64,000 nt of DNA, taken from positions 553,794-617,793 of the forward strand of contig CAVQNG010000003.1 in assembly GCA_963713825.1 (NCBI GenBank), read 5' to 3'. Positions within the stretch are counted from its first letter, which is position 1. Every line of letters starts with the position of its first letter. The notes under the pieces are model-generated. The model ran no database searches. It saw only the letters and a list, made by a program, of their open reading frames with translations, and was not told the DNA's origin. The stretch is from an uncultured Acidobacteriota bacterium. Its GTDB lineage: Bacteria; Acidobacteriota; Thermoanaerobaculia; Multivoradales; JAHEKO01. The translations under genes were made by a program, and so were the position numbers. Shown piece after piece: positions 8,443-63,241 of this stretch.

Positions 8443-8592
8443 GAGGGTTGAGGCGGCCGGGCGTACCTTCCGGCCGATCTTTGAGGGCCTGGGGGTTGAA
8501 GCGGCTGGACTTTGTCCGTCCGGTCTCTGGGGCAGTGGGGCGCAGGTGGTGTTGGGCCCGGCCTCCCCTAAGCCCTTAAGCCCTTACCCCCC
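8443..8592. repeat. Intergenic mosaic repeat, family R1 (locus 1)
   Basis: GGGTTGAGGC box, GGCCGG-N9-CCGGCC hairpin (8455-8475), TTGAGGGCCTGGGGGTTGA box, GGCAGTGGGG, then a C-rich CCTAAGCCCTTAAGCCCTTACCCC tract. It lies between convergent genes and overlaps the last codons of the radical SAM ORF. Confidence 0.7.
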
Positions 8593-9692
8593 TCCCGAAA
8601 GTCGCTGAGGCGGACGGGTAGCCGGCGTGCACCCCAATCCCCCGGGCTGCCATCGAAGCGTCCCGCACATGGCGTGCCACAGGCGCGGCAACTGCCGTCT
8701 GCCGTCAGTCGCCAATCGTTCAAGACATACCAGTCACGACCGATGAGCCTCTCGCCACACTCGTGGCAATAGGTACTGCCGCCTTCGTGGTCGTGAACGT
8801 TGCCGGTGTAGACATAGCGAACACCGTTGCCCATCGCGATGCGTCGAGCTCCGCTCAGCGTCTGATGCGGCGTCGGCGCGCGGTCCATCATCTTCCAGTC
8901 GGGGTGAAAAGCGGTGAAATGCATCGGCACGTCTCGGCCCAGTTTGTCCACCACCCAGCGCGACATCGCGTCGATCTCTTCGGGTGAGTCGTTTTCGCCT
9001 GGGATCAGCAGCGTGGTGATCTCGAACCAGACATCCGTTTCGTGCTGCAAGTAGACCAGGGTTTCGAGGACAGGCTGTAGGTGTGAGCCGCAGATCTCCC
9101 GATAGAACGATTCGGTGAAGGCCTTGAGGTCGACATTGGCGGCATCCATGTGGCGGTAGAACTCCTCGCGCGGCTCGGCACAGACCTCTCCTGCCGTTAC
9201 CGCCACGGCCTGGATGTCGAGCTCATGACAGGCCTGGGCAACATCGATCGCGTACTCGTGGAAGATGACCGGGTCGTTGTAGGTGAAGGCGACGCTGCGG
9301 CAGCCCAGTTCTCTTGCTGCTCGGGCGATGGTCTCCGGAGCTGCCTGATCGGCCAGGGTGTCGAACTGCCGGGACTTGGAGATGTCCCAGTTCTGGCAGA
9401 AACGGCAGGCCAAGTTGCAGCCCGCCGTTCCGAACGACAGCACCGGGGTGCCCGGAAAGAAGTGGTTCAGGGGCTTCTTCTCGATGGGATCCACACAGAA
9501 GCCACTCGAGCGACCGTAGGTAGTGAGAACCACCTCTCCGTCCAGGCAGCCACGTACGAAGCACAGCCCACGCTGTCCCTCACGGAGCTTGCAGAAACGG
9601 GGGCACAGATCGCACTGCACCCGGCCATCTTCGAGCTCATGCCAATAGCGAGTCGAAACGACGCTGGCGTCACGAGTGATGGGTACGTCCAT
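8568..9692 (-). CDS. amrS: AmmeMemoRadiSam system radical SAM enzyme
   Basis: 374 aa with the CNLACRFCQNWDIS radical-SAM cluster motif and the N-terminal CDLCPRFCKLREGQRGLCFVR Cys cluster. Overall resemblance to PFL-activase-like AmrS. Confidence 0.8.
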   Translation of the reverse strand: MDVPITRDASVVSTRYWHELEDGRVQCDLCPRFCKLREGQRGLCFVRGCLDGEVVLTTYGRSSGFCVDPIEKKPLNHFFPGTPVLSFGTAGCNLACRFCQNWDISKSRQFDTLADQAAPETIARAARELGCRSVAFTYNDPVIFHEYAIDVAQACHELDIQAVAVTAGEVCAEPREEFYRHMDAANVDLKAFTESFYREICGSHLQPVLETLVYLQHETDVWFEITTLLIPGENDSPEEIDAMSRWVVDKLGRDVPMHFTAFHPDWKMMDRAPTPHQTLSGARRIAMGNGVRYVYTGNVHDHEGGSTYCHECGERLIGRDWYVLNDWRLTADGSCRACGTPCAGRFDGSPGDWGARRLPVRLSDFREGGKGLRA

Positions 9693-9770
9693 GCCTGAGG
9701 CTTCCTCTCAATGCAACCAACCAAGACTGCACCGAATTCCAGTCAATGACGTACTTTCGGAGGTCCGTTG

Positions 9771-9940
9771 CGGGGCGTAGGAGCGTGAGGGATGGGCCCC
9801 CCACTGCTCAGAGAATCAGCCGCCGGAGTCGGAGGCTGATTCAACCCCCAATGCCCAAGAGCCGGCTGGAGGTACGACGGACGGTCCAACCCCCAAGCCC
9901 CCAAAGAGCGCCCGGCGGTGAGCCGGGCGCCTCCTCCCCC
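9771..9940. repeat. Intergenic mosaic repeat, family R1 (locus 2)
   Basis: GGGGCGTAGG tract, CCACTGCTCAGAG, TCAACCCCCAATGCCC and CCAACCCCCAAGCCCCCAAAG boxes. Hairpin CGCCCGGC-GGTGA-GCCGGGCG at 9909-9929. Confidence 0.7.
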
Positions 9941-9943
9941 CGG

Positions 9944-12900
9944 TCAGGGATTCACGAGCTTCACCCAATTGCGCATTGCACCCAAACTGCAGCCGAACTT
10001 CTCGTGGCCTTTGCCCAGATGCTGCGCCTCGATGATCTGCTCGCAAGAGCAGCCCCCTGTGTCACCCACCGTGAAGAAATCGGTGGGGCCACTCTGGAGC
10101 CGCCTCTGGTTACCACGGCCACCGGGGGCCGTCGTATCGAACACCCCGTCCTCATCCACCAGCGCGTACCGATTGACTCCCAGACGATCCGTCGGTACCG
10201 ACTCCGGAATCACCGTCGCCGGACAGACATCCACGTCATCGGGCACCCCGTCGTTGTCAGCATCGCTGGCCACGAAGAGAACAAGCCCGTCGTGATCGGA
10301 TGAGCGCAGGGGCGTCGTGTCGTCGTTGATCAGATCGACGAAGGCGTCGGCGTTGCCACGACCGAACTCCAGACCAGCCAGGAAGTCGTCCAACCCTTCA
10401 CTCGTCAGCGCATGGTCGAGGGCTTGACCGTTCCCAGTGAAGATGTAGGAGTAACGTTCCGCCTGATCCAGTTTCGCTGTCTGATTCGTCAGATCGGGCT
10501 CCACCAGATCAGCGCATGGGTTCGTGTCGCAGACGAGATTGTCGGCTGGCTCGAAGTCACCCACGATCTGGCCGACTGCGTCGACGTACCCGTCGGTGAA
10601 TTCAAAAGCGTTGTAGTCACCGATCACCACCAGGTGCACTTCAGGGTTCGCCGACTGCAGGGCCTGGACCTTCTCGGCAATGGACTGGGCCTGTTCGTAG
10701 CGCTTCTGCCTTACCCTCTCGCCACCGCTTGGATCATCGATCCCACCCAGGGAACGATTGTGGACCGTCATGACCGCAATGGAGAACGACCCAAACTCGA
10801 GCTCGAAAGCACCCTCGAGTAGCAAAGGTGGACGATCGTGCAGTAGCGAGCCGTCATAACTCAAGATCTCGTCCTCGCCGAGTTGGGTGATCTGGTCAAT
10901 CGTCACTGTGTCACGCACCATGAAGCCGACATCGATGCCGCCAACGTCGTTGCCCTCGATCAGGATCGGCGTGTAGATCACAGACGAATCCTCGAAAGCG
11001 ATGTCCACGGCCAGGTCCTCGAGGACCTCGATTTTCTCCGCCTCCTGGACAGCCAAGACATCGGGGGCATCGAGAACGTCGAGGATGTAGTCGACAAACT
11101 TGGCCTTCCGTCCGAAGTACTCGGCATTGTCGAAGAAACGCAACATGTTCAAGCTGCCCACTGTAAATTCTCCTGCCGCGCGCGCTCTGACCGGGCGCAA
11201 CACATCCGGCACCGGCCCCACCGACATCATCTTGGGTACAACCTTGTATCGACCGAAGGTGAAGTTCAGGGGGCCATAGCCCGAAATCGCCTGGCCGGCG
11301 AATACGGGGTCGGAGATGCCATCCAGGCCATCCGTGTCGACGTCGAAGACTTCGGGGTTTCCATCCCAGACGGGAAGATCTGATAGGCCCGGAAAGATGA
11401 TGCCGGGCTCTCGGAAGGGCCGCGGATTATCGACAACGAGACTGACCTCGCCGAACCGATTCGTCGGCCCTGAAGCGATGCCATCGAAGCTGACCAGCAT
11501 ACCCTCGAATCGCTCGAGATCCGGAACCGGAAACGGCTGGTCCGAAGGTGTCGTCGCATCGAACGGAGTTACTGTAGGCAGGGGTTCGCCGCCCCCCAGG
11601 ATGTCCACAGTTGGCGAGTCCGTGATCTCCGTCAGTTCGAAGTACTCCTGCACCCGCCCAATGACTCGTACGCGGTCTCCAATAGAGACCATTGGTGGGT
11701 CCACGCCCGTGTAGACGTAGATACCGTCCGAGGTATAGGGATCATCATCGCTGTCTGCGTCAGGTGTCTGCATGTAAAAGCTGCGAAAGGCCACTGCTGT
11801 GACCACGTTTTCGGTTGTCTTGACTTCCATGCCCTCATAGGGCGAGTAGAGGCCATCGCCCTGGATCTCCCAGATCTCCACCGTCGGGGGTCCCGGCGGT
11901 GGCTCGACTCCAGAGGTGACCATGAGGTTCTGAAAGGCGATGGCCTCCGAGCCACCATCGGTATTCGCCGTCAGGATCAGGGTGAGCGTTGAGCCGGTGC
12001 CCGTGAGCGGCGCGTAGAACGGGGCCATGTCATTGTTCAGCAGGTCTCCGTTCACCAGCATCGGGTCACTTAGGGTGACGATCGCACCGCCCTCCATCGT
12101 GTAGTCCTGCGAGGCATCCTCGTCGATCGAGCTCTGAAACGCCGTCTGTACCGCGCCACCGTCGATGCTGTAGCTCCAGTTAAAGAAATCATTCGCCGCC
12201 TCGAAGTCCCCCATCGCTCCCATGTCGATCGACAGCCCGAGATCCGACGCACCATAGATGTCGAAGACCCAGGTCGCAACTACGTCACGACCCGAGGTGT
12301 CGCCATTATTCGTGTCGACAATCCCGAAGAACTCGTCCGTATTCCCTGTCTTGATGATGCCGAGCGTATCCCCCGGGAAGGAGCCCGCAGAGTCGTCCAC
12401 CACCGCAAAAGGAATCGACGCCGATACTCCCCGCTGGAACTTGTTGAAACCATCCCCGGCAGAGGTGAACGGAATTGCCGGGTCGTCCGTAAACGACAAC
12501 AGGTTCTGCGACGCCGAGCTCACCATGTCAAAAGCGATGACTGTCGGTGGCGGTGGTGGCCCGACTCCCGCGGTGATGACGAGGTTCTGAAAGGCGATCG
12601 CCTCCGAGCCACCATCGGTGTTCGCCGTCAGGACCAACGTCAGCTGCGAACCGGTTCCCGAGAGAGCCGTGAAAAACGGGGTCAGGTTATTCGTCAGCAA
12701 CACCCCATTCATCAACATCGGATCACTTAGGGTGACGATCGCACCGCCCTCCATGGTGTAGTCCTGCGAGGCATCCTCGTCGATCGAGCTCTGAAACGCC
12801 GTCACTGCCGGACTGCCGTCGATGCTGTAGCTCCAGTTGAAGAAATCATTCGCCGCCTCGAAGTCCCCCATCGCTCCCATGTCGATCGACAGCCCGAGAT

Positions 12901-13957
12901 CCGACGCTCCACTGATATCGAAGACCCAGGTCGCAATTACGTCACGACCCGAGGTGTCGCCATTATTCGTGTCGACAATCCCGAAGAACTCGTCCGTATT
13001 ACCTGTCTTGATAATGCCCAGCGTATCCCCTGGGAAGGAGCCCGCAGAGTCGTCCACCACCGCAAAAGGAATCGACGCCGATACTCCCCGCTGGAACTTG
13101 TTGAAACCATCCCCGGCAGAGGTGAACGGAATCGCCGGGTCGTCCGTGAACGACAACAGGTTCTGCGACGTCGAGCCCACCATGTCGTAGGCAACCGCCA
13201 TCGGCACAGCAGTACTGACGATGAGGTTCTGGAAGGCGATCGCCTCCGAACCACCATCGGTGTTCGCCGTCAGGACCAACGTCAGCTGCGAACCGGTTCC
13301 CGAGAGAGCCGTGAAAAACGGGGTCAGGTTATTCGTCAGCAACACCCCATTCATCAACATCGGATCACTTAGGGTGACGATCGCACCGCCCTCCATGGTG
13401 TAGTCCTGCGAGGCATCCTCGTCGATCGAGCTCTGAAACGCCGTCACTGCCGGACTGCCGTCGATGCTGTAGCTCCAGTTGAAGAAATCATTCGCCGCCT
13501 CGAAGTCCCCCATCGCTCCCATGTCGATCGACAGCCCGAGATCCGACGCTCCACTGATATCGAAGACCCAGGTCGCAATTACGTCACGACCCGAGGTGTC
13601 GCCATTATTCGTGTCGACAATCCCGAAGAACTCGTCCGTATTACCTGTCTTGATAATGCCCAGCGTATCCCCTGGGAAGGAGCCCGCAGAGTCGTCCACC
13701 ACCGCAAAAGGAATCGACGCCGATACTCCCCGCTGGAACTTGTTGAAACCATCCCCGGCAGAGGTGAACGGAATCGCCGGGTCGTCCGTGAACGACAACA
13801 GGTTCTGCGACGTCGAGCCCACCATGTCGTAGGCAACGACCTGAGCCTCCGACGCGGTCGGTAGAGCCAGCAGTAATGCCATCAAGGCCAAGAACAGAGT
13901 GGAAACCGAAACAAACCTCGAGGTCTTTGCGAGCATCACCATTCTCCTCCCAGGCAT
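9944..13957 (-). CDS. Secreted ExeM/NucH-family extracellular nuclease with three N-terminal 214-aa repeats
   Basis: 1337 aa with a signal peptide (LFLALMALLLALPTASEAQ). Three tandem repeats are followed by an EIWEIQGDGLYSPYEG...IGDRVRVIGRVQEYFELTEI module typical of ExeM/NucH nucleases. An endonuclease/exonuclease/phosphatase domain follows (FTVGSLNMLRFF, VLAVQEAE, VIGDYNAFEF, LDHALTS, SDHDGLVLF). The C-terminus has a DADNDGVPDDVD calcium-binding-like motif and a Cys-containing tail. The likely true start is the third Met (MLAKT, near 13936), seven nt after GGGAGGAG. Confidence 0.8.
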   Translation of the reverse strand: MPGRRMVMLAKTSRFVSVSTLFLALMALLLALPTASEAQVVAYDMVGSTSQNLLSFTDDPAIPFTSAGDGFNKFQRGVSASIPFAVVDDSAGSFPGDTLGIIKTGNTDEFFGIVDTNNGDTSGRDVIATWVFDISGASDLGLSIDMGAMGDFEAANDFFNWSYSIDGSPAVTAFQSSIDEDASQDYTMEGGAIVTLSDPMLMNGVLLTNNLTPFFTALSGTGSQLTLVLTANTDGGSEAIAFQNLIVSTAVPMAVAYDMVGSTSQNLLSFTDDPAIPFTSAGDGFNKFQRGVSASIPFAVVDDSAGSFPGDTLGIIKTGNTDEFFGIVDTNNGDTSGRDVIATWVFDISGASDLGLSIDMGAMGDFEAANDFFNWSYSIDGSPAVTAFQSSIDEDASQDYTMEGGAIVTLSDPMLMNGVLLTNNLTPFFTALSGTGSQLTLVLTANTDGGSEAIAFQNLVITAGVGPPPPPTVIAFDMVSSASQNLLSFTDDPAIPFTSAGDGFNKFQRGVSASIPFAVVDDSAGSFPGDTLGIIKTGNTDEFFGIVDTNNGDTSGRDVVATWVFDIYGASDLGLSIDMGAMGDFEAANDFFNWSYSIDGGAVQTAFQSSIDEDASQDYTMEGGAIVTLSDPMLVNGDLLNNDMAPFYAPLTGTGSTLTLILTANTDGGSEAIAFQNLMVTSGVEPPPGPPTVEIWEIQGDGLYSPYEGMEVKTTENVVTAVAFRSFYMQTPDADSDDDPYTSDGIYVYTGVDPPMVSIGDRVRVIGRVQEYFELTEITDSPTVDILGGGEPLPTVTPFDATTPSDQPFPVPDLERFEGMLVSFDGIASGPTNRFGEVSLVVDNPRPFREPGIIFPGLSDLPVWDGNPEVFDVDTDGLDGISDPVFAGQAISGYGPLNFTFGRYKVVPKMMSVGPVPDVLRPVRARAAGEFTVGSLNMLRFFDNAEYFGRKAKFVDYILDVLDAPDVLAVQEAEKIEVLEDLAVDIAFEDSSVIYTPILIEGNDVGGIDVGFMVRDTVTIDQITQLGEDEILSYDGSLLHDRPPLLLEGAFELEFGSFSIAVMTVHNRSLGGIDDPSGGERVRQKRYEQAQSIAEKVQALQSANPEVHLVVIGDYNAFEFTDGYVDAVGQIVGDFEPADNLVCDTNPCADLVEPDLTNQTAKLDQAERYSYIFTGNGQALDHALTSEGLDDFLAGLEFGRGNADAFVDLINDDTTPLRSSDHDGLVLFVASDADNDGVPDDVDVCPATVIPESVPTDRLGVNRYALVDEDGVFDTTAPGGRGNQRRLQSGPTDFFTVGDTGGCSCEQIIEAQHLGKGHEKFGCSLGAMRNWVKLVNP
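11930..13856 (-). repeat. Intragenic tandem repeat, 3 x 642 bp (214 aa each)
   Basis: The shadow ORFs 12837..13190 and 13479..13832 have identical 117-aa translations and are offset by exactly 642 nt. The two upstream units are almost identical at nucleotide level, and the few differences I saw lie at the unit junctions near 12585-12610 and 13225-13250. The third unit (about 11930-12570) is clearly diverged. Confidence 0.9.
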
Positions 13958-14197
13958 GCAAATGGATGGATACCAGCCAGAGACACGCCTCCCGTGTACA
14001 TGTCCTCGTACCGGGTGGCCTCCATGCCTGTCTCCCTCCAGACATTGCTCACCTGCGCTGCGGGTGAGCGGATTCCAGGTGTACTACTAACTTAGCCCAC
14101 CCAGCGAAGGAGTCAAGCAGGTATTGACACTTGTCTATGGGTCTTCCTCGCGTCGACACGCCGGCAAGGGAACACTCCCTCCCAATCGTCCAGAGGC

Positions 14198-14349
14198 GTG
14201 GGTCTTGGGGTTGAAGCGTCCGGTCGTCCCACCCGGCCGGTCCTTGAGGGCTTGAGGTTGAAGAGCCCGTCGTCCCTCCGGCCTACCTTTGAGGCAGTGG
14301 GTCTCCCTCCCGTTTTCCTAAGCCCTTAGGCCCCTACGCCCTTATTGCC
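14198..14349. repeat. Intergenic mosaic repeat, family R1 (locus 3)
   Basis: GGGTCTTGGGGTTGAAGCG, CCGG-containing hairpin units, TTGAGGGCTTGAGGTTGAAG, GAGGCAGTGGG, then CCTAAGCCCTTAGGCCCCTACGCCC. It directly abuts an R2 element. Confidence 0.7.
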
Positions 14350-14364
14350 TTCAGCGGTGCCAGA

Positions 14365-14546
14365 GGTTCGTCCCGGGGCCTCTCGACAAGCGCAGCGCAA
14401 GAGCCATGGCAATGCTAGACAGATCCGGTTCGCAGGTGGCGGCCCGCCCTTGAAGTAGGGGAGGGGCTTGCCCCCTCCCACTGGAGCCCTCAAGGGGCTC
14501 CCCTACATTGCCGACGCCGTCCCCCTGCGAGCCACCCGGACGGATC
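14365..14546. repeat. MITE-like element, family R2 (copy 1, partly degenerate left end)
   Basis: Left end GGTTCGTCCCGGGG, right end CGAGCCACCCGGACGGATC. Conserved internal blocks CTCGACAAGCGCAGCGCAAGAGCC, CAGGTGGCGGCC and GCCGACGCCGTCCCC are shared with the copies at 51899 and 63253. Confidence 0.65.
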
Positions 14547-14571
14547 TCAATTCGAGAACGGCCCCGAGACA

Positions 14572-14606
14572 CTGAATAAGAGAACGGCCGGCAGGGGCGC
14601 CGGCCG
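14572..14606 (-). terminator. Rho-independent terminator downstream of the PCD gene
   Basis: On the minus strand, CGGCCGGC-GCCCCT-GCCGGCCG forms an 8-bp GC stem followed by TTCTCTTATT. It starts about 25 nt after the stop at 14632. Confidence 0.6.
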
Positions 14607-14631
14607 CTTGAGGATTCTCACGTATGTGATG

Positions 14632-14976
14632 TCAGTCGCTGGTGCCGCCCTCGAGGCGGTCGGCCTTGGCGGCCCAGACGAAGTCGCTTTCGGTCAGGCC
14701 GTCGATCTTGTGGGTCCAGATCTTCAAGCCTACCTTGCCCCAGGTCAGGAAGATCTCGGGGTGATGGTTCACCTCTTCCGCCAGCTCCCCGACCCGATTC
14801 GTAAAGGCGAGTGCTTCGACGAAGTTACCGAATCGATACTGCTTCTCGAGGTGATGGCTGTCCACCAATTTCCAGTCGTTCCCGAGCCGTTCGTAGAGAC
14901 CCGCCAGTTCTTCGCCTTCGAGAGGAGGTACGCCTCCCCTGCAAGGTACACAAATGCCATCCGCAAGCTCACTCAT
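14632..14976 (-). CDS. phhB: Pterin-4-alpha-carbinolamine dehydratase (PCD/DCoH)
   Basis: 114 aa. FGNFVEALAFTNRVGELAEEVNHHPEIFLTWGKVGLKIWTHKIDGLTESDF matches the PCD core, including the HHP motif. Confidence 0.9.
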   Translation of the reverse strand: MSELADGICVPCRGGVPPLEGEELAGLYERLGNDWKLVDSHHLEKQYRFGNFVEALAFTNRVGELAEEVNHHPEIFLTWGKVGLKIWTHKIDGLTESDFVWAAKADRLEGGTSD

Positions 14977-15023
14977 CCGCAGTCTCCTTCGGCTTGCCTT
15001 CGGTTCGCTGTCGCGTCACCGAT

Positions 15024-15752: not shown

Positions 15753-15889
15753 AGGATCTCCTTTCCGCGCTGTCTCTCGAACAGAGACAAAAACTACCAC
15801 AGCCCCGTCTCGGTCCCGCCTGACGGTGAACTGGGATCGGTGGAACCGCCAGAGGCAACTGGAGCCTTCAACCTGTCGAGGTCAGGCGG

Positions 15890-16715: not shown

Positions 16716-16755
16716 CGAAAAAGCAACTGGCCGCCGGAGATAGCCCGGCGGCCAG
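16716..16755 (-). terminator. Rho-independent terminator after tRNA-Asn
   Basis: On the minus strand, CTGGCCGCCGG-GCTATCT-CCGGCGGCCAG forms a perfect 11-bp stem followed by TTGCTTTTTCG. Confidence 0.8.
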
Positions 16756-24098: not shown

Positions 24099-24341
24099 GA
24101 TCCGTCCTCCTATCGAGTGCACTCGAGTGCACGGAATTCGAAGGTACCACAGGCCCCTGGCTCCCACAAGCTCGAAACAGCCTGAAGCAAGCCACGCGAC
24201 CACTGCGTTACGACTATCCTAAACCTCTCATCCTCAAGGAGTTTGGTGGTGTGTTACCTTGACACCGCCAACACGGCCAAGCATACAATAGGCGTCTACG
24301 AAAAAACCGTTTTCGACTTCGAAATTTGCTGGAGGATCCGC

Positions 24342-28702: not shown

Positions 28703-28811
28703 TGAAGTGTGGAAACCGAGGTTTCATTGCAGGGAGATCAACAGCTGACGCGGTGCCGTAGCGACCGCTTGCCCACCGCCAGACGATCTTCAATGCCATC
28801 AGGCATGCGCA

Positions 28812-28850
28812 GGGGGTGTCCTTCGGAGGGACACCCCTTTTCTTATCTTC
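28812..28850 (+). terminator. Rho-independent terminator about 110 nt downstream of tRNA-CAT
   Basis: GGGGTGTCC-TTCGGAG-GGACACCCC forms a 9-bp stem followed by TTTTCTTATCTT. Confidence 0.8.
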
Positions 28851-33099: not shown

Positions 33100-33246
33100 A
33101 GGGGGCATAGGGGCGTAGGGGCTTAAGGGCTTAGGGGCGCGGGAGGGGGGGGGGCCACTGCCCTAAAGGTCAGCCGGAGCGAGCGACGGCTGCCTCAACC
33201 CCCAAGCCCTCGAGGATCGGCCGGAGGTACGACCGGCCGCCTCAAC
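33100..33246. repeat. Intergenic mosaic repeat, family R1 (locus 4)
   Basis: GGGGGCATAGGGGCGTAGGGGCTTAAGGGCTTAGGGGCG G-tract, CCACTGCCCTAAAGG, CCTCAACCCCCAAGCCCTCGAGG box and a GGCCGG-N8-CCGGCC hairpin. It lies between convergent genes. Confidence 0.75.
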
Positions 33247-33249
33247 TCT

Positions 33250-44395: not shown

Positions 44396-44572
44396 AGGGC
44401 GTAGGGGCGTAGGGGCGTAGGGGCGTAGGGGCGTAGAAGACAATACCCAATAGCTCAAGACCTCAGTGCCCCTCAAGCCCCCAAAGGCAGGCCGTAGGAA
44501 CGCCGGCCTCCTCAACCCCCAAGCCCTCAAAGAACGTCGGGCGGTGAGCCGGACGCCTCAACCCTCAAGGTT
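44396..44572. repeat. Intergenic mosaic repeat, family R1 (locus 5) with (GGGGCGTA)n tract
   Basis: About five tandem GGGGCGTA units at 44396-44435. Then CCTCAAGCCCCCAAAGG and CCTCAACCCCCAAGCCCTCAAAG boxes and the hairpin CGGGCGGTGAGCCGGACG. It lies between convergent genes. Confidence 0.8.
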
Positions 44573-51872: not shown

Positions 51873-51898
51873 GCCCTACATAGCCACCAACGAGCGGA

Positions 51899-52058
51899 GG
51901 TCCGTCCGGGTGGTTCGCAGGCGGACGGCGTCGGCTACTCAGACTGCAACGGGCGGGCCGCCACCTTGTCACGTCATCGCGCCTCATCTCTTGTGTTCTG
52001 CGATGGTCCTTGCGCTGCGCTCGACGTGGCACCCCCTGTCGAACCACCCGGACGAACC
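51899..52058. repeat. MITE-like element, family R2 (copy 2, inverted relative to copies 1 and 3)
   Basis: Perfect 19-bp terminal inverted repeats: GGTCCGTCCGGGTGGTTCG (51899-51917) and CGAACCACCCGGACGAACC (52040-52058). The internal blocks are the reverse complement of those in the other copies (GCGTCGGCTACTCAG, CTTGCGCTGCGCTCGAC). Confidence 0.75.
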
Positions 52059-52078
52059 TCTGGCACCGGTGGTCGCAT

Positions 52079-52117
52079 TGAGGCAGTGGGGCACTGAAGG
52101 CGTAGGGGCTTAGGGGA
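52079..52117. repeat. R1 fragment (locus 6) abutting R2 copy 2
   Basis: TTGAGGCAGTGGGGCACTGAAGGCGTAGGGGCTTAGGGG. Confidence 0.55.
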
Positions 52118-52291
52118 CAGAAGACTCGTAGGTACAGAAGTACAAGGCCGTGCCCAGGGTTCGGCGTGGGGACCTCCAGGGGGTTCTTGCAGCGGAAGGG
52201 AGGATAGCCCCCTGGGGGCCCCACGGTGAACGCCTCCTTGGAAGAACGGTTTGGGTTGACGCACAAAAGGGCCGCAGAGGCGCCGGTCGAA

Positions 52292-56330: not shown

Positions 56331-56460
56331 CTAGCAACTTCTCGGCGGCCGACTGGGGGGTTCAGGCGGGGTCGGTTGGATTCGAGGAGTCAGCACCGGG
56401 CTCGGCCTCGGTGTCGTTTGGACTACATTCCTTCCGGCGACCTGCCGGATTGGGCACCCC

Positions 56461-56547: not shown

Positions 56548-56710
56548 AGTTCTCGCTCTCGTCCTTCACCTTAACAGGCTGGACGCCTGTTTCATTCCAG
56601 ATACGGTCCTGGGGTCGTGAGGTCTTGGAGTCCTGCAACATGCGGGAGTAGGGACCTAGGTGAGCAGGGGGGCGAATGAGACCGCGGGTTGCTTTGGGGC
56701 AATGGACCGT

Positions 56711-56852
56711 GAGGGAGGGGGTCCCACTGCTCAAGGAAGCGGCCGGCAGAGGCGCCGGCCGCTTCTGTCCTCAAAGATCAGCCGAGGCACGCCGGCTGCC
56801 TCAACCCCAAGCCCTCAGAGAACGCCCGGCGGTGAGCCGGGCGCCTCGACCC
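56711..56852. repeat. Intergenic mosaic repeat, family R1 (locus 7)
   Basis: GAGGGAGGGGGTCCCACTGCTCAAGG, GC hairpin GCGGCCGGC-N6-GCCGGCCGC, CCTCAACCCCAAGCCCTCAGAG box and hairpin CGCCCGGC-GGTGA-GCCGGGCG (56823-56843). Confidence 0.7.
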
Positions 56853-56945
56853 TGACGACCCGAGCCGATAGCAATCGCTAGCGGTGAAATCGAATACACT
56901 TGCGCCGACTCGAAGCAGGGGCATAGCCCTCGAGGGAGGCTGACA

Positions 56946-57811
56946 ATGCAAGAGATGTTCTCGAAGCGATGGTTCCGAATCCTCATTGGCGTTCTGGCCG
57001 TGTTGGCGTCGGTGTTCATGGGCCGCTATCAGCGCCAGACAGGGCCTACGTATCCGGTTCCCGTGAGTGAAGAGCTCGCCGGTTCGAGCATCTCCGGCAA
57101 ACTGATACGCACCCACGGCGGGGCAGGAGATGCCCATGTCACGTTGAGCGTCGCGTCCTCCACAGCCGAGGGTGAGGTTCTCTGGCGACGCTATCCCACC
57201 AACGAGGATTGGGGCCGGCTCCCCATGCAGCGCGAGGGGGGGAGCTCGCGGCAGACCTGCCTCATCAGATCCCAGCAGCGAAGCTCGAATACTCCGTGCG
57301 ACTGACCGACAGTGGGCAGGAGGTAGTCCTCCCGCACGGCGAGACGGCAGTCATCCGCTTCCGTGATGACGTACCGGCCTGGGTTCTCATACCTCACATC
57401 ATTTTCATGTTCGTATCCCTGGCCATCGTCTTCAGGGCAGCGTTTGGTGCTTTGCTGGGGGAGGACAACGTACGCCGCTTCATTCCCTGGGCTCTCGGAT
57501 TCCTGCTGCCGGGGGGATTCCTGCTGGGGCCCCTCGTTCAGAAGTTTGCCTTCGACGCTTACTGGACGGGCTGGCCCTTTGGTGGCGACTGGACCGACAA
57601 CAAGACACTCGCCGCACTGGTAGCCTGGTTGATCGCCTGGTACATCTGCCGGCAATGGCCTCGCTTCGAACGACTCGCCATCCTCTTTGCCTCCGTCGTC
57701 ATGCTGGGGGTCTATCTGATTCCCCACAGCATTCACGGCAGCGAGCTGGATTGGTCCCAAATGGAAGCGGTAGCAACCGAGCCAGCCCCCGAGGCGGCCG
57801 ACGGAGGCTAG
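56946..57811 (+). pseudogene. Membrane protein gene split by a frameshift in a G7 run (or an assembly error)
   Basis: Track ORFs 56946..57305 and 57209..57811 overlap in different frames. Adding one G to the G7 run at 57236-57242 joins ...RLPMQREGG to ELAADLPHQIPAAKLEYSV... into one ORF of about 289 codons, with an N-terminal TM helix and a multi-TM C-terminal half. Confidence 0.65.
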
Positions 57812-57848
57812 ACACAGATTCGCTGTTGCAAGGCGTCAGGATCTCGAG

Positions 57849-57950
57849 ACCCCTACGCCCTGAAGCCCCTGAGCCTCTATTGCCCAGGACCCAAGCCCTC
57901 AAGGACCGGCCGAGACAAAGTCCGGCCGCCTCAACCCCCAAGCCCTCATT
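57849..57950. repeat. Intergenic mosaic repeat, family R1 (locus 8)
   Basis: CCCCTACGCCCTGAAGCCCCTGAGCC tract, CAAGCCCTCAAGG, hairpin CCGGCC-N10-GGCCGG-like (GACCGGCCGAGACAAAGTCCGGCCGC) and CCTCAACCCCCAAGCCCTCA. It lies between convergent genes. Confidence 0.7.
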
Positions 57951-57953
57951 GCC

Positions 57954-59501
57954 TCAGTGCTTGTGCACGTCCTTGTGCATCAGGCGCCGGCTGGCCTTCA
58001 GGCGCTCACCGGCGGGTAGAGCCTTCAATCGGGCATTGAGCCCTTCATCGGACTCACCTTCGAGCTTGCCGATCACGAGATCGATGAGGCGAGGCGACAA
58101 ACCCCGTGCCTCGAAGAACTCCCGATTCTCGCCAAGGCTACGAGCGGCGGCCACGGCGCTTGCCGGTAGCTGGTCCAGAGAGTCTCCTGCTTCCGGTGTC
58201 TCAGCCCTGCCGTCGCTGACTTCGAGCTGGCGAGCCAGATCCTCCGACTCGGCCGATGAAAGTCCCTCTTCGACACAGAGAGTCACGGCAGCCAAAAGGA
58301 GCTGCGAGAAAGCACTTCCATCTGGGCTTCGATACTCCACCGTCGTCCGCGCCAGGCTCTCGGGGTAAGAACCGGTTTCTGCCGAGTTCGTGACCTGATC
58401 CAAGCGACCCTCGGTGGCGAAATCGAGGGGAACTCGGATGAGACTCGTGCGATTCCGCTCTCCCCAGCAGACGTTGGTCGGCGCTTCCTGTCCCGGTACC
58501 AGTCGCAGATAGCTCGCCGCCACGGTGTTACCGAAGGCCGTCAGCGGTGCCGCTCTCTCGAGCAAGCCGCCGATCATGCGGAGAGATTCTCCTGAGAGCT
58601 CGCCACCAGCATCGCGCATGACGCTCTCACCAGACCGCTGTAAGGCCAGGTGAAGGTGCAGACCGCTGCCAGCCATGCCCTGATCCAGTTTCGGCACGTA
58701 GGTCACCGACGCATCGTGGCGATCGGCGATCACCCTGACCAACCAACGCGTGACGGCCAGCCAGCAGGCCAGGTCCTCGACCGGCATGAGGTCGAACTCC
58801 AACTCGTACTGCTCTACTCTGCGGCCATCGAGCTCGGCCTCCTCGGACTCCAAACGATCGATGTAGCCCACCTCGCTGTGGCAGTACTTGACCTTGCCGG
58901 AAACAGCCGACGCCACACGCAGGATCTCGTCGGCCACGGTATGACCATGCAAGTAGGGCGCACTCTGGTGATAGTTGCGCTGCGATTTGCCGGTGAACCT
59001 GTCGTCGGATCGCTCGAGGACCAGGTAGAACTCCAGCTCGGCCAGGGCCTCCAATTCGAGGCCGGTCCTGTTGCGTAGGCGCTCGGCCGCGGTCACCACG
59101 ACATTGTCAGGTGTGCTGACACAGGGTTGCCCCCGATGGTCGACGAAGCGACAGACGATGTCCAGCTCATCGTCGGCGAAGGGGTTCAAGAAGGCCCAGC
59201 GATAGACCGGCACGGCGTAAAGATCACTCTCCCCAGTGGGGAAGAGCCCGGGGAAGAGACTCGACCCATCGACGCGCTCACCACCCGCCAGGATCCGCTC
59301 GAGGTATGCACGGTTGTTCACCGGCAACCTCAACTCCCTCAGCTTGCCGTCGAACGAGGTGTAGCGGAAGTTCACCACCTGAATGCCATCGGCCAGGCAG
59401 AGCTCCAGCAGATCGGAGCGCTGCCATTGCTCCGGAGGCTTACCCAGCCGGCGTACCAGAGGCCGGATATCCCACGTCAGATCCCCTGATTTCGATTCCA
59501 T
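57954..59501 (-). CDS. Glutamine synthetase family protein
   Basis: I take the start at MESKSGDL (ATG 59501, five nt after GGTGGAGA). Has a beta-grasp N-terminal segment (VNFRYTSFDGKLRELRLPV), GSGLHLHLAL and YLRLVPGQEAPTNVCWGERNRTSLIRVP, which fits the GS signature Y.RLVPG.EAP....W...NR...IR.P. Confidence 0.8.
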   Translation of the reverse strand: MESKSGDLTWDIRPLVRRLGKPPEQWQRSDLLELCLADGIQVVNFRYTSFDGKLRELRLPVNNRAYLERILAGGERVDGSSLFPGLFPTGESDLYAVPVYRWAFLNPFADDELDIVCRFVDHRGQPCVSTPDNVVVTAAERLRNRTGLELEALAELEFYLVLERSDDRFTGKSQRNYHQSAPYLHGHTVADEILRVASAVSGKVKYCHSEVGYIDRLESEEAELDGRRVEQYELEFDLMPVEDLACWLAVTRWLVRVIADRHDASVTYVPKLDQGMAGSGLHLHLALQRSGESVMRDAGGELSGESLRMIGGLLERAAPLTAFGNTVAASYLRLVPGQEAPTNVCWGERNRTSLIRVPLDFATEGRLDQVTNSAETGSYPESLARTTVEYRSPDGSAFSQLLLAAVTLCVEEGLSSAESEDLARQLEVSDGRAETPEAGDSLDQLPASAVAAARSLGENREFFEARGLSPRLIDLVIGKLEGESDEGLNARLKALPAGERLKASRRLMHKDVHKH

Positions 59502-59831
59502 TTTTGTCTCCACCCGAGCGAGCTTAGCAGGGTGGTTCATATTTCTGCAGCGCGGCATCCCACATTCTTGAATCTGCACCAGCCCATGAAAGTCACCACC
59601 ATAAGTTGCTTCTTTACAGCTATTTACACTCCCATCTCTCGATGGGCCGGCGACAGGGTCCGTCACTTCGGAGGAGAAATTCTTCAAGATTCTGCACCTG
59701 CACTAGGAAGTTCCAGTCACCTGAATCCCTGGGTACACGCTTCACGAAATTGAATCCGTGTCCCGAATCGTCAATGTTCCTCTTGCTCCTCAGCCAGATG
59801 CGGCCAGTCGTTCGCTCGAGCTTTCGGCGTT

Positions 59832-59846
59832 TGGCACCCTCCTTGC
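59832..59846 (+). promoter_or_regulatory. Sigma-54 (-24/-12) promoter candidate upstream of the giant OMP gene
   Basis: TGGCAC-CCTCC-TTGCT is an exact match to TGGCAC-N5-TTGCW. It sits about 110 nt upstream of the ATG at 59956, in a visibly less GC-rich intergenic region. Confidence 0.55.
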
Positions 59847-59955
59847 TCTAGGCCCACCTGACGAGAGCGATTCACAGCGCGCAGATCCACGTGGAGTTCC
59901 GTTCTCGCGAGCAGCACGCAGCCACATCGATCCAACTACCCAAGGAGGATCACCC

Positions 59956-62900
59956 ATGAGAACAAACAGATGGTTATGGCCGCTAGCGTTGGCATTTGCA
60001 CTACTGCTGAGCACAGCGGCAATCACAAATGCACAAGAGGAGACCGGGAACATTTACGTCCAGGTCACCGACACCGCAGGACAAACTCTGCCAGGCGCCA
60101 GTGTTGAAATGGTGGGTGGCGGAGCGCCCAGACTCGGGATCACCAGCGCGCAGGGTGAAACGCGTTTCCTCGGTCTGGCCCCAGGCAATTACAGCCTGAA
60201 GGCCACCCTGGACGGTTTCTCCACCGTTGAGTACCCGAACGTCAACGTCAGGGTCGGCCGTAACACCACGATCCAGGTGCAGCTCAGTGCTGCCATTGGT
60301 GAGGTGATCACGGTGACTTCTGAGAGCCCACTGTTGGATGAGCGCCGGCTCACCGCCGGTACCACGATCAGTCAGGTCGAGCTCGAGAGCATTCCGAGCG
60401 CGCGTGACCCGTGGGCCATCGTGCAGCAGGCTCCCGGAGTCATGACCGACCGCATCAACGTCGGTGGTAACGAGAGCGGCCAGCAGGCCGTCTTCCGTGG
60501 CCAGGCCAACAACGGCGACGAGAACGACTTTCTTGTCGACGGTGTCCAGATCACGGACATGTCCGCCATCGGCTCCTCACCGACCTACTACGACTTCGAC
60601 CAGTTCTCCGAGATTCAGCTGGCAACCGGTGGTCCCGATGTAAGCAAGGGCGCAGCCGGTGTCTCGGTCAATATGGTCACCAAGCGTGGTACCAACGAGT
60701 TCCGCGGCACGGCACGCTTTCTGCTGACGGATGCCGCTGGTTACTTCGGCGCGCTCGAAGCCGCGGATCCGGGTTACTCGGACAGCGACCTCGGACCGGG
60801 CCAGGACAACTACTCCGGTGACACGGTCGATCGGATTCAGGAATTCGGCTTCGAGGCCGGTGGTCCGGCGTGGCGGGATCGCGTCTGGCTGTGGGCTTCG
60901 TGGGGTCAGAACGACATCAATCGGATCGTCGGTAGTGGCCAGTCCGACCGCACGATCCTCGAGGGCACCGCGGTCAAGTTGAACGCCCAGTTCACCGCGG
61001 CCAACTCCTTCGTTGCCTCCTTCAACAACGGCGACAAGGTCAAGTTCGGCCGTGGTGCGTCGCCGGACAACGATCCGTCGTCGACCCGTAACCAGCGTGG
61101 TCCGACGGGGATCACCAAACTCGAGGACACGCACGTCTTCGGCTCGAACCTGTTCCTGACCGGTCAGTACTCCTTCGTCGATGGCGGTTTCTCGCTGACG
61201 GCGCTGGGCGGCTCAGGCCCAGACCTTCCCGCGATTCCGTTCCCTGGCGGCGAAAAGTACACCAACGGCGACGGTTTCGTGACCAACAACTCTACCGGCG
61301 GCAACAGCCGTCCGACCGAGGAGTTCAAGATCGACGGTTCCTACTTCTTCACCACCTCGAGCTTGAACCACGAGATCAAGTTTGGTGGTCGAACGCGCGA
61401 AGCCTCGACCGAGAGCGCCTGGTCGTATCCTGGCCGCAACATCTTCCACTACGACGGCACCTATGCCGGCGTGGCGGGCGACAGGGAACTCGGTGCCTCG
61501 CTCGGACTGCCTGTGGCCCGTGCGGACGACTACGCTGCGGTCTACGCCTACCGTCAGGGTCCCGTACCTGTCATCACGAACTACGATTCGTTGTGGGTGC
61601 AGGACACGATGACGATGGGCTCCTGGACCTTCAACGTCGGCTTCCGTTGGGACGATCAGTCGGGTGAGAACACGGCTGGCGTCGTGGATGCCAACCTCGG
61701 CTTCCCGAATGAAATGCCGGCCCTCGACTTCGCGGGCAACAACGCCGACGGCCTCAACTGGTCGAGTATCACTCCTCGCCTGGGTGTCACTTACGCCCTC
61801 GGTGAGGAGCGCAAGACACTCATCCGCGGTAGCTTCTCGCAGTTCCCGGATGTCATGTCGTTGACCAACATCAGCCGCGTGAACCCCTTGTCCGGACAGT
61901 TGGCGTACATCGTCTTCGTCGACGATCCGGCTGGTTTCCCGGGCTTTTACGATGACGGCGAACAGTACGCAGTGGCAGCCGGCTACTGGGGCTACAACCC
62001 GAACGACCCGGCGGCTCTGTCGTCCTCGAACAAGAACGATCCGGGCATGGATGCTCCGCTCACCAACGAGTTGATCCTTGGTGCCGAGCATGCCTTCCTG
62101 CCTGAGTTCGTGGTCAGCGGTACCCTCACCTGGCGTAAGGTCACGGATGTACAGGACTTCCAGCGGTTGTTCACGCCGCTCGGCAACGACAACGCGACAC
62201 CGCAGACGATTCCGGCCAGCGAGTACATCACGGACCCGACACCACTCGTGATCACGATCCCGGGTATTGGCGGCCCTGCTGCAACCGAGTCGTATACCAC
62301 CTACTCGGCGGATCCGTCGAAATGGAACTACACAGGTGGTCAGCTGTTCACCAACGGTGATCGTGAGATCGACTACCTCGGTGCAACCATCGGCTTCACG
62401 AAGCGACTGGCGAACCAGTGGATGATGCGTGGCTACGTCCAGTACAACTTCGACGAGTCCTGGAGCGTGCCGGGTAGCTACTTCAACAACAACGATCCCA
62501 ACCGAGTGCTGCCTGGTGTGGCGTCCGGTGCTGTCATCGATGGCTCGACCTACGTCATCCAGTCGACCGGTTCCGGCCGCGACGAGTCCTGGCTGCAATC
62601 GGAATGGGGTTGGAACTTGAACGGCATGTACCAGGTGGCGCCCGACAGGCCCTGGGGCTTCAACGTCGCCGCCAACATGACCGGCCGTCAGGGCTATCCG
62701 ATTCCGTACTACCGGAACAGAACCGGTCTGGACGGAATTTCACGGTCGATTCAGGCTGCACAGAACATCGACGACTATCGCATGGACGATCTGTTCTCGA
62801 TGGATATGCGGCTCGAGAAAGAGTTCAGGACGGCGGGCAACCTCGGCCTGACCTTCTCGATCGACGCCTTCAATATCTTCAACAACGGCGTCGTGCTGGA

Positions 62901-62997
62901 CCGCAACCGCAACACCACCTCCGGCAACGTGGGGTGGATCAGTACCTCGCTGGCACCGCGGGTCTTCCGACTCGGTGTCCGCTTGAACTGGCGGTAA
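59956..62997 (+). CDS. Large outer-membrane beta-barrel protein with N-terminal carboxypeptidase-regulatory-like domain (TonB-dependent-receptor-like)
   Basis: I take the start at MRTNRWLWPLALAFALLLSTAAITNAQ after AAGGAGGA. GNIYVQVTDTAGQTLPGASVEMVGGG...GNYSLKATLDGF is CarboxypepD_reg-like. A plug-like segment follows (VTSESPLLD...GVMTDRINVGGNESGQ), and the C-terminal strand is VFRLGVRLNWR. Confidence 0.8.
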   Translation: MRTNRWLWPLALAFALLLSTAAITNAQEETGNIYVQVTDTAGQTLPGASVEMVGGGAPRLGITSAQGETRFLGLAPGNYSLKATLDGFSTVEYPNVNVRVGRNTTIQVQLSAAIGEVITVTSESPLLDERRLTAGTTISQVELESIPSARDPWAIVQQAPGVMTDRINVGGNESGQQAVFRGQANNGDENDFLVDGVQITDMSAIGSSPTYYDFDQFSEIQLATGGPDVSKGAAGVSVNMVTKRGTNEFRGTARFLLTDAAGYFGALEAADPGYSDSDLGPGQDNYSGDTVDRIQEFGFEAGGPAWRDRVWLWASWGQNDINRIVGSGQSDRTILEGTAVKLNAQFTAANSFVASFNNGDKVKFGRGASPDNDPSSTRNQRGPTGITKLEDTHVFGSNLFLTGQYSFVDGGFSLTALGGSGPDLPAIPFPGGEKYTNGDGFVTNNSTGGNSRPTEEFKIDGSYFFTTSSLNHEIKFGGRTREASTESAWSYPGRNIFHYDGTYAGVAGDRELGASLGLPVARADDYAAVYAYRQGPVPVITNYDSLWVQDTMTMGSWTFNVGFRWDDQSGENTAGVVDANLGFPNEMPALDFAGNNADGLNWSSITPRLGVTYALGEERKTLIRGSFSQFPDVMSLTNISRVNPLSGQLAYIVFVDDPAGFPGFYDDGEQYAVAAGYWGYNPNDPAALSSSNKNDPGMDAPLTNELILGAEHAFLPEFVVSGTLTWRKVTDVQDFQRLFTPLGNDNATPQTIPASEYITDPTPLVITIPGIGGPAATESYTTYSADPSKWNYTGGQLFTNGDREIDYLGATIGFTKRLANQWMMRGYVQYNFDESWSVPGSYFNNNDPNRVLPGVASGAVIDGSTYVIQSTGSGRDESWLQSEWGWNLNGMYQVAPDRPWGFNVAANMTGRQGYPIPYYRNRTGLDGISRSIQAAQNIDDYRMDDLFSMDMRLEKEFRTAGNLGLTFSIDAFNIFNNGVVLDRNRNTTSGNVGWISTSLAPRVFRLGVRLNWR

Positions 62998-63030
62998 GTC
63001 GTCCATTCAAACCAGGCCACACGCTTCACC

Positions 63031-63062
63031 GCCGGGGGGGCAACTCCCCGGCGCTTTTTGTT
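63031..63062 (+). terminator. Rho-independent terminator after the OMP gene
   Basis: GCCGGGG-GGGCAACT-CCCCGGC is followed by GCTTTTTGTT. A second perfect hairpin GCCTAGCC-GAT-GGCTAGGC follows at 63067-63085. Confidence 0.75.
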
Positions 63063-63088
63063 CCCGCCTAGCCGATGGCTAGGCAGTC

Positions 63089-63241
63089 AAGGGTTGAGGC
63101 GTCCGGTCGTTCCTTCCGGACGATCTATGAGGGCTTGGGGGTTGAACCGGCCGCACTCCGTGTCGGCCGGCCTTTGGGGCTTGGGGGAACAGCCGACAAA
63201 CAACCCTCGCGCCCCTACTGTCCTATGCCCTTACGCCCCCC
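63089..63241. repeat. Intergenic mosaic repeat, family R1 (locus 9)
   Basis: Two hairpin units of about 46 bp (GGGTTGAGGCGTCCGG...CCGGACGATCTATGAGGGCTT and GGGGGTTGAACCGGCCG...CGGCCGGCCTTTGGGGCTT), then CCCCTACTGTCCTATGCCCTTACGCCCCCC. It directly abuts R2 copy 3. Confidence 0.75.

Follow-up and report, generated by a model that had tools for sequence, protein, structure and literature searches.

Modular hairpin repeats at gene ends, a candidate lineage-specific family in uncultured Thermoanaerobaculia

Modules and loci of the R1 repeats

The DNA under study is a 64,000-nt stretch, hereafter the window, of contig CAVQNG010000003.1 (positions 553,794 to 617,793; assembly GCA_963713825.1) from an uncultured bacterium of the class Thermoanaerobaculia (Acidobacteriota). 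Nine intergenic loci in the window carry the repeats termed R1, which combine G-rich octamer tracts, short GC hairpins and C-rich boxes. The original prediction, made from the sequence letters, had proposed a mosaic interspersed repeat family, and direct reading recovered the described modules at the quoted positions in each of the nine loci, the individual hairpins included. The 18-nt box TCAACCCCCAAGCCCTCA, searched with up to three mismatches, has 6 matches in the window against 0.07 expected, and 0 of 100 shuffled sequences reach six; degenerate copies of the box are present at loci 3 and 7. This enrichment, together with the architecture common to the loci, indicates that the mosaic family is genuine, and R1 can be regarded on sequence grounds as a real, previously undescribed family of small modular repeats that belongs to an ordinary class of bacterial repeat.

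The core of R1, read on the strand that carries the C-rich boxes (the C-box strand), is a unit of ~46 nt consisting of CCYCAAAGAN, a GC hairpin of 19–24 nt, and CCTCAACCC(CCAAGCCCTCAAAGA), which is present in one to four direct tandem copies per array. The hairpins are flanked by the C-rich and nearly invariant linker CCTCAACCCCCAAGCCCTCAAAGA, and 5' of the array the same strand usually carries a G-octamer tract, (GGGGCKTA)n. The common order thus runs 5'-(GGGGCKTA)n, spacer, CCCACTGCYC/CCAAGCCC-CAAAG, one to three repetitions of GC hairpin plus CYTCAACCCCCAAGCCCTCAAAGA, and a last GC hairpin followed by CCTCAACCC-3'. G-octamer tracts were found at loci 1–6, 8 and 9, and locus 7 has just GAGGGAGGGGG; a 13-mer search for the G tract has a high background, with 34 matches expected in the window. 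The predicted CCACTGCYC module is present and always stands just 5' of the first hairpin, but it is not enriched by itself (4 exact matches versus 1.9 expected by chance) and was dropped as an independent motif. The claimed variation of module order between loci needs correcting, since the order is not free: of 200 arrays, each scored within 250 nt, 68 have the G-octamer tract on the 5' side of the same strand and 3 have it on the 3' side. The inverted tract claimed for locus 8 was found, as octamers of the C type.

A covariance model of R1, built from 75 hairpin units (10 nt of flank, 7-bp stem, loop, 10 nt of flank) and run with the filters off, detected 14–15 full units in the window, all within eight of the nine loci. 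Since the only other match in the window is a lone hairpin at 14585–14609, the list of nine loci is complete for the window.

The array strands are plus for loci 2, 4, 5 and 7 and minus for loci 1, 3 and 9, and polarity is called typical where the C-box strand has at its 3' end a neighbouring gene whose own 3' end points towards the array. At locus 1, the G-rich 3'-flank module GGGAGGGCGGGTGGG (8428–8442, minus strand), a G-quadruplex (G4) motif, directly follows the stop codon (8424–8426) of the plus-strand gene 6798–8426; arrays in related loci have the same module on their 3' side. Two hairpin+box units follow in typical polarity, 17 nt from that stop (8444–8486, 64.1 bits, and 8492–8532, 29.9 bits; both minus), and then a minus-strand G-octamer tract (8560–8596, with a G4 motif at 8573–8596) that overlaps the stop codon (8568–8570) of the radical-SAM gene 8568–9692 (minus). 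The frame of this gene enters the tract (8568–8596, minus) and ends at a TAG within it, and octamer slippage could change the C-terminus of the radical-SAM protein. Locus 2 (9771–9940, plus) comprises short G-octamers (9771–9795), CCACTGCTC (9801–9809) and three hairpin units, the last of which (9899–9939) scores 44.8 bits; the locus ends 4 nt from the stop of gene 9944–13957 (minus). Locus 3 (14198–14349, minus), with hairpin units at 14207–14249 and 14254–14294 and a G-octamer tract at 14317–14349, is atypical in that its 3' end faces a gene start.

Locus 4 (33100–33249, plus) occupies the whole gap between stop codons at 33097 and 33250 and consists of a G-octamer tract with two G4 motifs (33101–33154), CCACTGCCC, and hairpin units at 33161–33202 and 33208–33249. 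Locus 5 (44396–44567, plus) contains five copies of GGGGCGTA (G4 motif 44397–44423), a linker and hairpin units at 44479–44519 and 44525–44565, and its terminal CCTCAACCCTCA provides the TGA stop of the ATPase gene 44565–46538 (minus). Locus 6 (52079–52117, plus) has only G-type octamers (GAGGCAGTGGGG, GGCGTAGGGGCTTAGGGG) with no hairpin+box unit, placed between two further repeats described below, a 174-bp element with terminal inverted repeats (TIRs) and an 85-nt hairpin repeat. Locus 7 (56711–56853, plus) contains CCCACTGCTC, a lone hairpin (56740–56765) and hairpin units at 56769–56808 and 56813–56853; it is also atypical in polarity, lying 93 nt upstream of the open reading frame (ORF) 56946–57305 (plus). 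Locus 8 (57849–57956, plus) consists of the C-type tract, one hairpin unit (57897–57938) and a terminal box, and abuts the TGA stop (57954–57956) of a glutamine synthetase gene. Locus 9 (63089–63241, minus) has hairpin units at 63090–63132 and 63138–63179 and G-octamers at 63211–63241, in typical polarity; a canonical terminator (63030–63053) stands between gene 59758–62997 and this array. An extra partial copy, a lone GC hairpin at 14583–14609 (minus) of the same type as that at 56740–56765, comes after gene 14632–14976 (minus) and is followed by the terminator-like CTCTTATTCA.

Gene-end polarity, hairpin pairing and site histories

The intergenic, 3'-end-biased placement proposed for R1 extends to related loci, where box clusters fall in 39 convergent, 26 tandem and 5 divergent gaps, compared with 78, 208 and 82 in the background, and called genes contain only 5 of 99 arrays. 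In the window, the five convergent-gene gaps said to hold loci are upheld by the calls from ORFs and from GC content at third codon positions (GC3). Polarity is typical for 70 of 86 arrays in lineage genome loci (p = 3e-9), with a median array-to-stop distance of 26 nt and a distance of 40 nt or less in 42 of the 70; metagenome loci replicate it (87/113, p = 7e-9, median 24 nt). On the G-tract side the bias is weaker (49/73; 61/97) and the distances are hundreds of nucleotides. About a quarter of the arrays lie within ~10 nt of a stop codon. In the window the rule is kept at loci 1, 2, 4, 5, 8 and 9, and the terminal motif of the element contains the abutting gene's TGA stop at loci 5 and 8. 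Where a convergent gap holds two arrays (L064, L066, L087, L091), each array faces its own gene. An orientation bias relative to the replication strand found no support, with 5 plus and 3 minus arrays in the window under a monotonic GC skew.

Given arrays placed at 3' ends in a fixed polarity, with the abutting gene on the opposite strand, the mRNA of that gene runs directly into the hairpins. It reads stop codon, GGGUUGAGG, hairpin, (A/G)UCUUUGAGGGCUUGGGGGUUGAGG, hairpin, and so on to the C-rich octamers, the segment between hairpins being alternatively written (A/G)UCUUUGAGGGCUUGGGGG.

The stems of the hairpins vary while their pairing is kept. There are 117 distinct hairpins among 142 sequence-anchored units, and 114 among 131 in another census. 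In a model-derived alignment of 150 matches, standard pairs make up 91% of the stem cells, each of the 7 stem pairs varies on both sides, and double changes occupy 99 cells versus 17 in shuffles; sliding the partner by 1–3 columns lowers the pairing to 15–51%. As this alignment was fitted to the structure, the test was repeated on hairpins taken by their flanking sequence alone, with exact degenerate anchors, and the six outer positions were then 86.5% Watson–Crick, compared with 70.2% (sd 0.9%) for shuffled partners. The loops fall into few classes, namely AAGGAACGC, (G)AGGTACG(A), AGCAAGCG, CGGTGAG/CGGAGAG and CGAAGTCG. Among non-Watson–Crick pairs read on the C-box strand, there are 21 G·T against 5 A·C (p = 0.0025), with 25 against 5 in the metagenome loci, and purine–purine mismatches are far above pyrimidine–pyrimidine ones in both sets.

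The original prediction had also found no canonical terminator in the five convergent gaps, and a consensus scan agrees: it flags none there, yet strong ones elsewhere in the window. These strong intrinsic terminators, with stems of 10–13 bp and T-rich tails, are located at 16755–16727 (minus), 14608–14583 (minus), 22900–22873 (minus), 28811–28839 (plus) and 63030–63053 (plus), and two of the five adjoin tRNA genes. The lineage therefore uses classical terminators alongside the R1 repeats. On the G strand, which is the mRNA sense of the abutting gene, the hairpins are tailed by ATCTTTGAGG (62 copies), GTCTTTGAGG (36) or TTCTTTGAGG (31), and the intrinsic-terminator criterion of at least 5 U in 8 nt holds for 34 of 356 units; the R1 hairpins would thus be weak terminators at best. 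The idea that R1-bearing gene ends lack canonical terminators was rejected, as the difference has the opposite sign (terminator calls at 27% of ends with R1 versus 5% of those without). This excess likely arises because R1 hairpins that end in a TTCTTTGA tail (~10%) pass the loose criterion themselves, assuming that the terminator calls coincide with R1 units, and it is taken only as a sign that some units are terminator-like.

With a G4 motif defined as G runs of at least 3 and loops of 1–7 nt, all 5 canonical motifs of the window are in R1 loci, which cover 2.1% of it. A G4 motif lies within 250 nt upstream on the same strand of 26% of the 200 arrays, versus a background of ~2.3%.

Orthologous sites in related genomes record both conservation and change. 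A JBATEX relative, with an overall identity of ~82%, matches the hairpin+box units of loci 7 and 8 at 100% over ~80–100 nt (~80 nt at locus 8), departures from the family consensus included. The remaining spacer at both loci cannot be aligned with this relative, and the adjacent coding sequence is, as read from the alignment, ~93% identical. A segment of ~60 nt directly 3' of the locus 7 array (56853–56912) is likewise ~98% identical to the JBATEX relative amid diverged neighbouring spacer; it ends ~35 nt upstream of ORF 56946–57305 and may be a conserved 5' untranslated region (UTR) or regulatory element. At loci 4 and 5, the family occupies the same intergenic site in all relatives with differing hairpin types or extra modules, including, in CAMYLC, a case without any hairpin unit. 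Between near-identical metagenome strains (window 44396–44436 versus L103 and L104), locus 5 differs by one single-nucleotide polymorphism and one 8-nt octamer, so that the (GGGGCGTA)n tract has 5 copies versus 4; it behaves as a slippage-prone microsatellite. The conserved units at loci 7 and 8, the swapped modules at loci 4 and 5 and the octamer change therefore characterize the elements as old residents, some parts of which are constrained while other parts turn over, probably by slippage and recombination.

Lineage distribution, companion repeats and known repeat systems

An exact scan for the 18-mer box was made in one genome per species across a collection of 596 billion bases. Among the matches listed, the 18-mer is multi-copy only in five metagenome-assembled genomes (MAGs) of Thermoanaerobaculia/Acidobacteriota (JBATEX01, CAMYLC01, JAUVRX01, JAUWSP01 and JARFQS01), and other taxa have single matches, which by a rough estimate is the chance level for a collection of this size. 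The window is syntenic with contigs of JBATEX01 and CAMYLC01 at ~78–87% nucleotide identity, and JGI sediment metagenomes contain an exact copy of one of its proteins. The R1 model detected 230 units in 608 kb of Thermoanaerobaculia MAG loci and none in 26 loci of other taxa, save four units in two opposed arrays on one contig binned as Gemmatimonadota (L026; JBATJK010000232.1, 2347 bp), which is probably a mis-binned Thermoanaerobaculia contig. The box is abundant in sediment metagenome contigs and was absent from the viral contigs scanned. Rfam returned no match to an R1 locus at the gathering threshold or at E <= 1, only two tRNAs of the window passing the gathering threshold, and a literature search found no paper linking Thermoanaerobaculia with REP-type repeats (repetitive extragenic palindromes). 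R1 is, as far as these scans indicate, specific to one clade of Thermoanaerobaculia, composed of uncultured sediment bacteria.

Two further repeat families accompany R1 in the window. A ~174-bp element resembling a MITE (miniature inverted-repeat transposable element) lies at 51897–52070 (plus), 14345–14550 (minus) and 63244–63410 (minus). Its TIRs are ~27 nt long (GGTCCGTCCGGGTGGTTCGCAGG...) and its core CCTTGCGCTGCGCTCGAC is conserved; the predicted folding energy is -92.5 kcal/mol (z -2.9), and 1.3 Mb of lineage DNA contains 63 matches (34 full-length) at 80–93% identity. The element sometimes lies 5' of the R1 G-octamer tract; by a strict count, G-octamers occur within 60 nt of its end ...GAACCTCTGGCACC in 27 of 46 copies, and most of the other copies inspected have related octamers. 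Because its end precedes G-octamers in 27 of 46 copies, the element is either an optional 5' module of R1 or one that targets the octamer tract. The other companion is a long hairpin of ~85 nt (GGTTCGGCGTGGGGACCTCCAGGGGG...CCCCCTGGGGGCCCCACG) at 52147–52231 (plus), which folds on the plus strand at -61.8 kcal/mol (z -3.7) and has 75 matches in lineage DNA with a median identity of 95%, versus ~82% between the genomes; nothing in Rfam matches it, and it may be either an element that was active until recently or a structured RNA present in many copies. Repetition also occurs within coding regions. ORF 9944–13957 (minus; 1337 aa, with only a weak endonuclease/exonuclease/phosphatase match) contains three tandem repeats of ~650 nt, 86–99% identical, at 11889–13515, which are a recent internal domain duplication. 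Five degenerate 84-nt units rich in GAG/GAA/GCC triplets, spaced by 72–120 nt, are located at 25223–25702 and overlap ORFs on both strands (24243–26192, plus; 24234–25628, minus).

R1 had been likened to REP sequences and to bacterial interspersed mosaic elements (BIMEs). REPs, BIMEs and REPINs (PMC2817692, PMC3333891, PMC3733652, PMC3116915) are high-copy, extragenic, GC-rich palindromes of 20–40 nt that form mosaics with conserved linkers, lie mostly downstream of genes between convergent or co-directional ORFs, and have been proposed to act in termination, mRNA stability and, near stop codons, translation. R1 shares the short, imperfect, extragenic palindrome at high copy number (hairpins of 19–24 nt, 230 units per 608 kb), the position and, in the nearly invariant CCTCAACCCCCAAGCCCTCAAAGA, the conserved linker; effects on translation of REPs near stop codons (PMC12306157) are a possible parallel, as about a quarter of the R1 arrays lie within ~10 nt of a stop. 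However, the classification as BIME/REP-type does not hold. In REPs the stem is family-wide and one end of the palindrome carries a conserved tetranucleotide, GTAG or CGTC (PMC3733652), whereas the R1 stems are unconserved, with double changes in all 7 pairs, and no such tag stands at the hairpin foot, which is mostly CGGC with T at the third position in 9 of 144; GTAG appears in R1 only inside the G-octamer tract, tens of nucleotides from the hairpins. In BIMEs, regularly spaced REPs alternate in orientation (PMC2817692), whereas R1 units follow head-to-tail with a ~46-nt period and one orientation per array, and arrays of opposite orientation are confined to convergent gaps, where they form separate clusters, one at each end.

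No REP-associated tyrosine transposase (RAYT) was found at E <= 10 by phmmer against all ORFs of at least 60 aa in ~1.3 Mb of DNA flanking the boxes (608 kb of genome and 694 kb of metagenome loci), a partial genome sample in which single-sequence queries can miss distant RAYTs. The three queries were validated, RayT/YafM matching NF047646 at 179 bits and the IS608 and IS200 TnpA matching PF01797. The genome-derived loci (JBATEX, CAMYLC and the window) likewise contain no protein family that is multi-copy within a genome. With regard to MITEs, the R1 core shows only partial complementarity between G-octamers and C boxes, whole-element folds have z values of -0.8 to -1.9, and no empty site was found from which target-site duplications (TSDs) could be read.

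Thus R1 works like REP/BIME, BOX or SPRITE elements but is not a member of the REP/BIME class, and its closer analogues appear to be two pneumococcal repeats, BOX in architecture and SPRITE in proximity to gene 3' ends (PMC3049150). BOX is an intergenic composite, boxA-(boxB)n-boxC, with distinct 5' and 3' modules around a direct tandem module of ~45 nt that varies in number, folds on itself, gives strain-variable lengths and clusters with other repeat families (PMC3049150). In these terms R1 consists of the G-octamer/CCACTGC module, one to four hairpin+box units, and a terminal CCTCAACCC with or without a GGGCGGGTGGG module, by analogy of architecture, homology having been checked through Rfam scans, which were negative. 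Unlike BOX, to which those scans give it no sequence relationship, R1 has a variable covarying stem beside an invariant linker, a 5' module that is a G-octamer microsatellite with G4 potential, and a much stronger polarity and stop-codon proximity, and no TIR, TSD or candidate mobilizing insertion sequence was identified for it. SPRITE is enriched near the 3' termini of coding sequences, resembles a Rho-independent terminator and has been proposed to be co-opted as one, but it is an AT-rich 18-bp duplex with a long U-rich tract, in contrast to the tandem 6–8 bp stems and UCUUUGA tails of R1 (PMC3049150). A CRISPR array, in which many identical repeats alternate with unique non-palindromic spacers, usually beside cas genes, was rejected on the grounds that there are only 1–4 units, whose "spacers" are palindromic hairpins from few loop classes, and integron attC sites, DNA-uptake sequences and FtsK-orienting polar sequences (KOPS) were rejected on the anatomy of R1. 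Mycobacterial interspersed repetitive units (MIRUs) are direct tandem intergenic units of 40–100 bp, oriented to the flanking genes, abutting or overlapping stop codons and strain-variable in copy number; they lie within operons and carry small ORFs. R1, unlike MIRUs, is hairpin-centred and mostly at the ends of transcription units.

Possible roles of R1 and their significance

The best explanation, held with somewhat more confidence than doubt, is that R1 repeats are lineage-specific, non-coding modular elements that would have spread as non-autonomous DNA, turned over by slippage and recombination, and been kept as 3'-end elements of genes. The original prediction had suggested a terminator, mRNA-stabilizer or insulator role, and this putative role gains indirect support from the polarity of the arrays relative to the abutting gene. 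At the end of that gene, the hairpins and their short U-containing tails may act weakly as intrinsic terminators, hold back 3' exonucleases, or both. The G tract (as a G4) and the C-rich, G-poor boxes split by hairpins might impede transcription that arrives from the opposite side and would otherwise read antisense into the neighbouring gene, a speculative step that would fit the better pairing of the hairpin on the C-box strand.

Several observations weigh against a retained 3'-end function. The U tracts are short, with 3–4 T in the best 8-nt window in 295 of 356 units (83%), and at locus 9 the canonical terminator 63030–63053 already precedes the array, which is therefore not needed there as the primary terminator. 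Opposite polarity occurs in ~20–25% of arrays, window loci 3 and 7 included, and the gene calls in related loci come from a GC3-based heuristic. The copies are related, and the compensatory changes could partly stem from several master copies, not from site-by-site selection. The excess of G·T over A·C and of purine–purine mismatches suggests, in two sets that are not fully independent, that the C-box strand forms the hairpin somewhat better than the mRNA of the abutting gene does. Finally, minimum-free-energy structures of the whole-element RNA pair the G tract with the C boxes, and these folds are not clearly more stable than shuffles (z again -0.8 to -1.9); a defined global RNA structure is not claimed.

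A more ambitious form of the idea, which we consider unlikely, is that R1 has been domesticated as a 3'-end insulator with strand asymmetry, which would largely take the place of canonical terminators where the transcription units of the clade end. In one direction the short-U-tailed hairpins would end or stabilize the mRNA of the abutting gene; in the other, the G4 tract followed by the hairpin-split C-rich boxes would recruit Rho, so that transcription in antisense or from a convergent gene is halted short of the gene, and the better pairing on the C-box strand would reflect function in this second, antisense RNA. The C-rich boxes with hairpins resemble the rutA-boxB-rutB layout of lambda tR1.

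The strongest competitor, less probable than the retained 3'-end element and still a serious one, is that R1 is purely selfish non-autonomous mobile DNA, MITE- or REPIN-like and without host function, for which the 3'-end sites would be tolerated insertions and the polarity a product of the insertion mechanism or of selection against a harmful orientation. Its high copy number and modular shuffling, the differing module content at orthologous sites, the octamer copy-number polymorphism and the co-clustering with the 174-bp TIR element and another hairpin repeat all favour this, and a hairpin better formed on one strand is what recognition of single-stranded DNA by a transposase would predict; the similar 3' bias of pneumococcal repeats has indeed been explained by tolerance (PMC3049150). 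It sits less well with the lack of a Y1/RAYT transposase or multi-copy protein in the box-flanking sequence searched and of clear terminal inverted repeats in the R1 core, and with hairpin+box units at loci 7 and 8 that remain 100% conserved beside spacer diverged beyond alignment, while the compensatory changes, found in each of the 7 stem pairs, point to constraint on elements already inserted. That the far greater conservation of the linker than of the stems marks an array of DNA-level binding sites, with the invariant 24-nt box bound by a nucleoid-associated protein, gyrase or another protein and cruciform hairpins organizing supercoiling, is improbable. The position between convergent genes, where positive supercoils accumulate, would suit it, as would the precedent of BIMEs, which are bound by integration host factor (IHF) and gyrase (PMC2817692, PMC3333891), yet a duplex-DNA site does not need the strong orientation rule relative to the abutting gene, and no candidate protein was identified.

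A multi-copy regulatory RNA read from the C-box strand, acting as a sponge for a CsrA-type protein or as rut-like Rho-loading sites, is very improbable. Most loops do carry GGA or GGAGG at their 5' side (AAGGAACGC, GGAGGTACGA, CGGAGAG), the wobble and mismatch asymmetry favours this strand, and its boxes are rich in C and poor in G, with 13 C but 2 G among 24 nt; against this, no promoter-like sites were found, the C-box strand is not the mRNA strand in tandem gene contexts, hairpin number and type vary freely, and Rfam has no match. A resemblance by chance between GC-rich, low-complexity stretches, or an artefact of assembly, has a negligible probability. The genome, at 62% GC, abounds in short G/C-rich motifs, and the 13-mer G tract has its 34 expected matches, but the box has 6 matches where 0.07 are expected, covariance-model scores reach 66 bits and are confined in the window to these loci, and the family recurs in five independent MAGs and many metagenome assemblies; the box enrichment, the covariance-model census and the metagenome abundance effectively refute this explanation.

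To our knowledge, small interspersed repeats have been well studied in Proteobacteria and Firmicutes and hardly in Acidobacteriota. The points of interest in R1 are its polarity, the design of free stems and fixed linkers, and the G4 tracts borne by the repeat. The family could serve as a test set for the upkeep of hairpins with free stems and fixed flanks, for the function of G-quadruplex tracts at bacterial gene ends, all G4 motifs of the window being repeat-borne, and for array turnover at orthologous sites. R1 copies are likely to break up assemblies. They may also help to curate bins, as a lineage marker that exposes contigs placed in the wrong bin, the 2.3-kb "Gemmatimonadota" contig being a probable example. 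If the proposed role is true, an abundant sediment lineage would close a sizeable fraction of its genes with a 3' module that is carried by a repeat and specific in orientation, instead of with classical terminators, which would matter for the annotation of operons and 3' UTRs in Thermoanaerobaculia MAGs.

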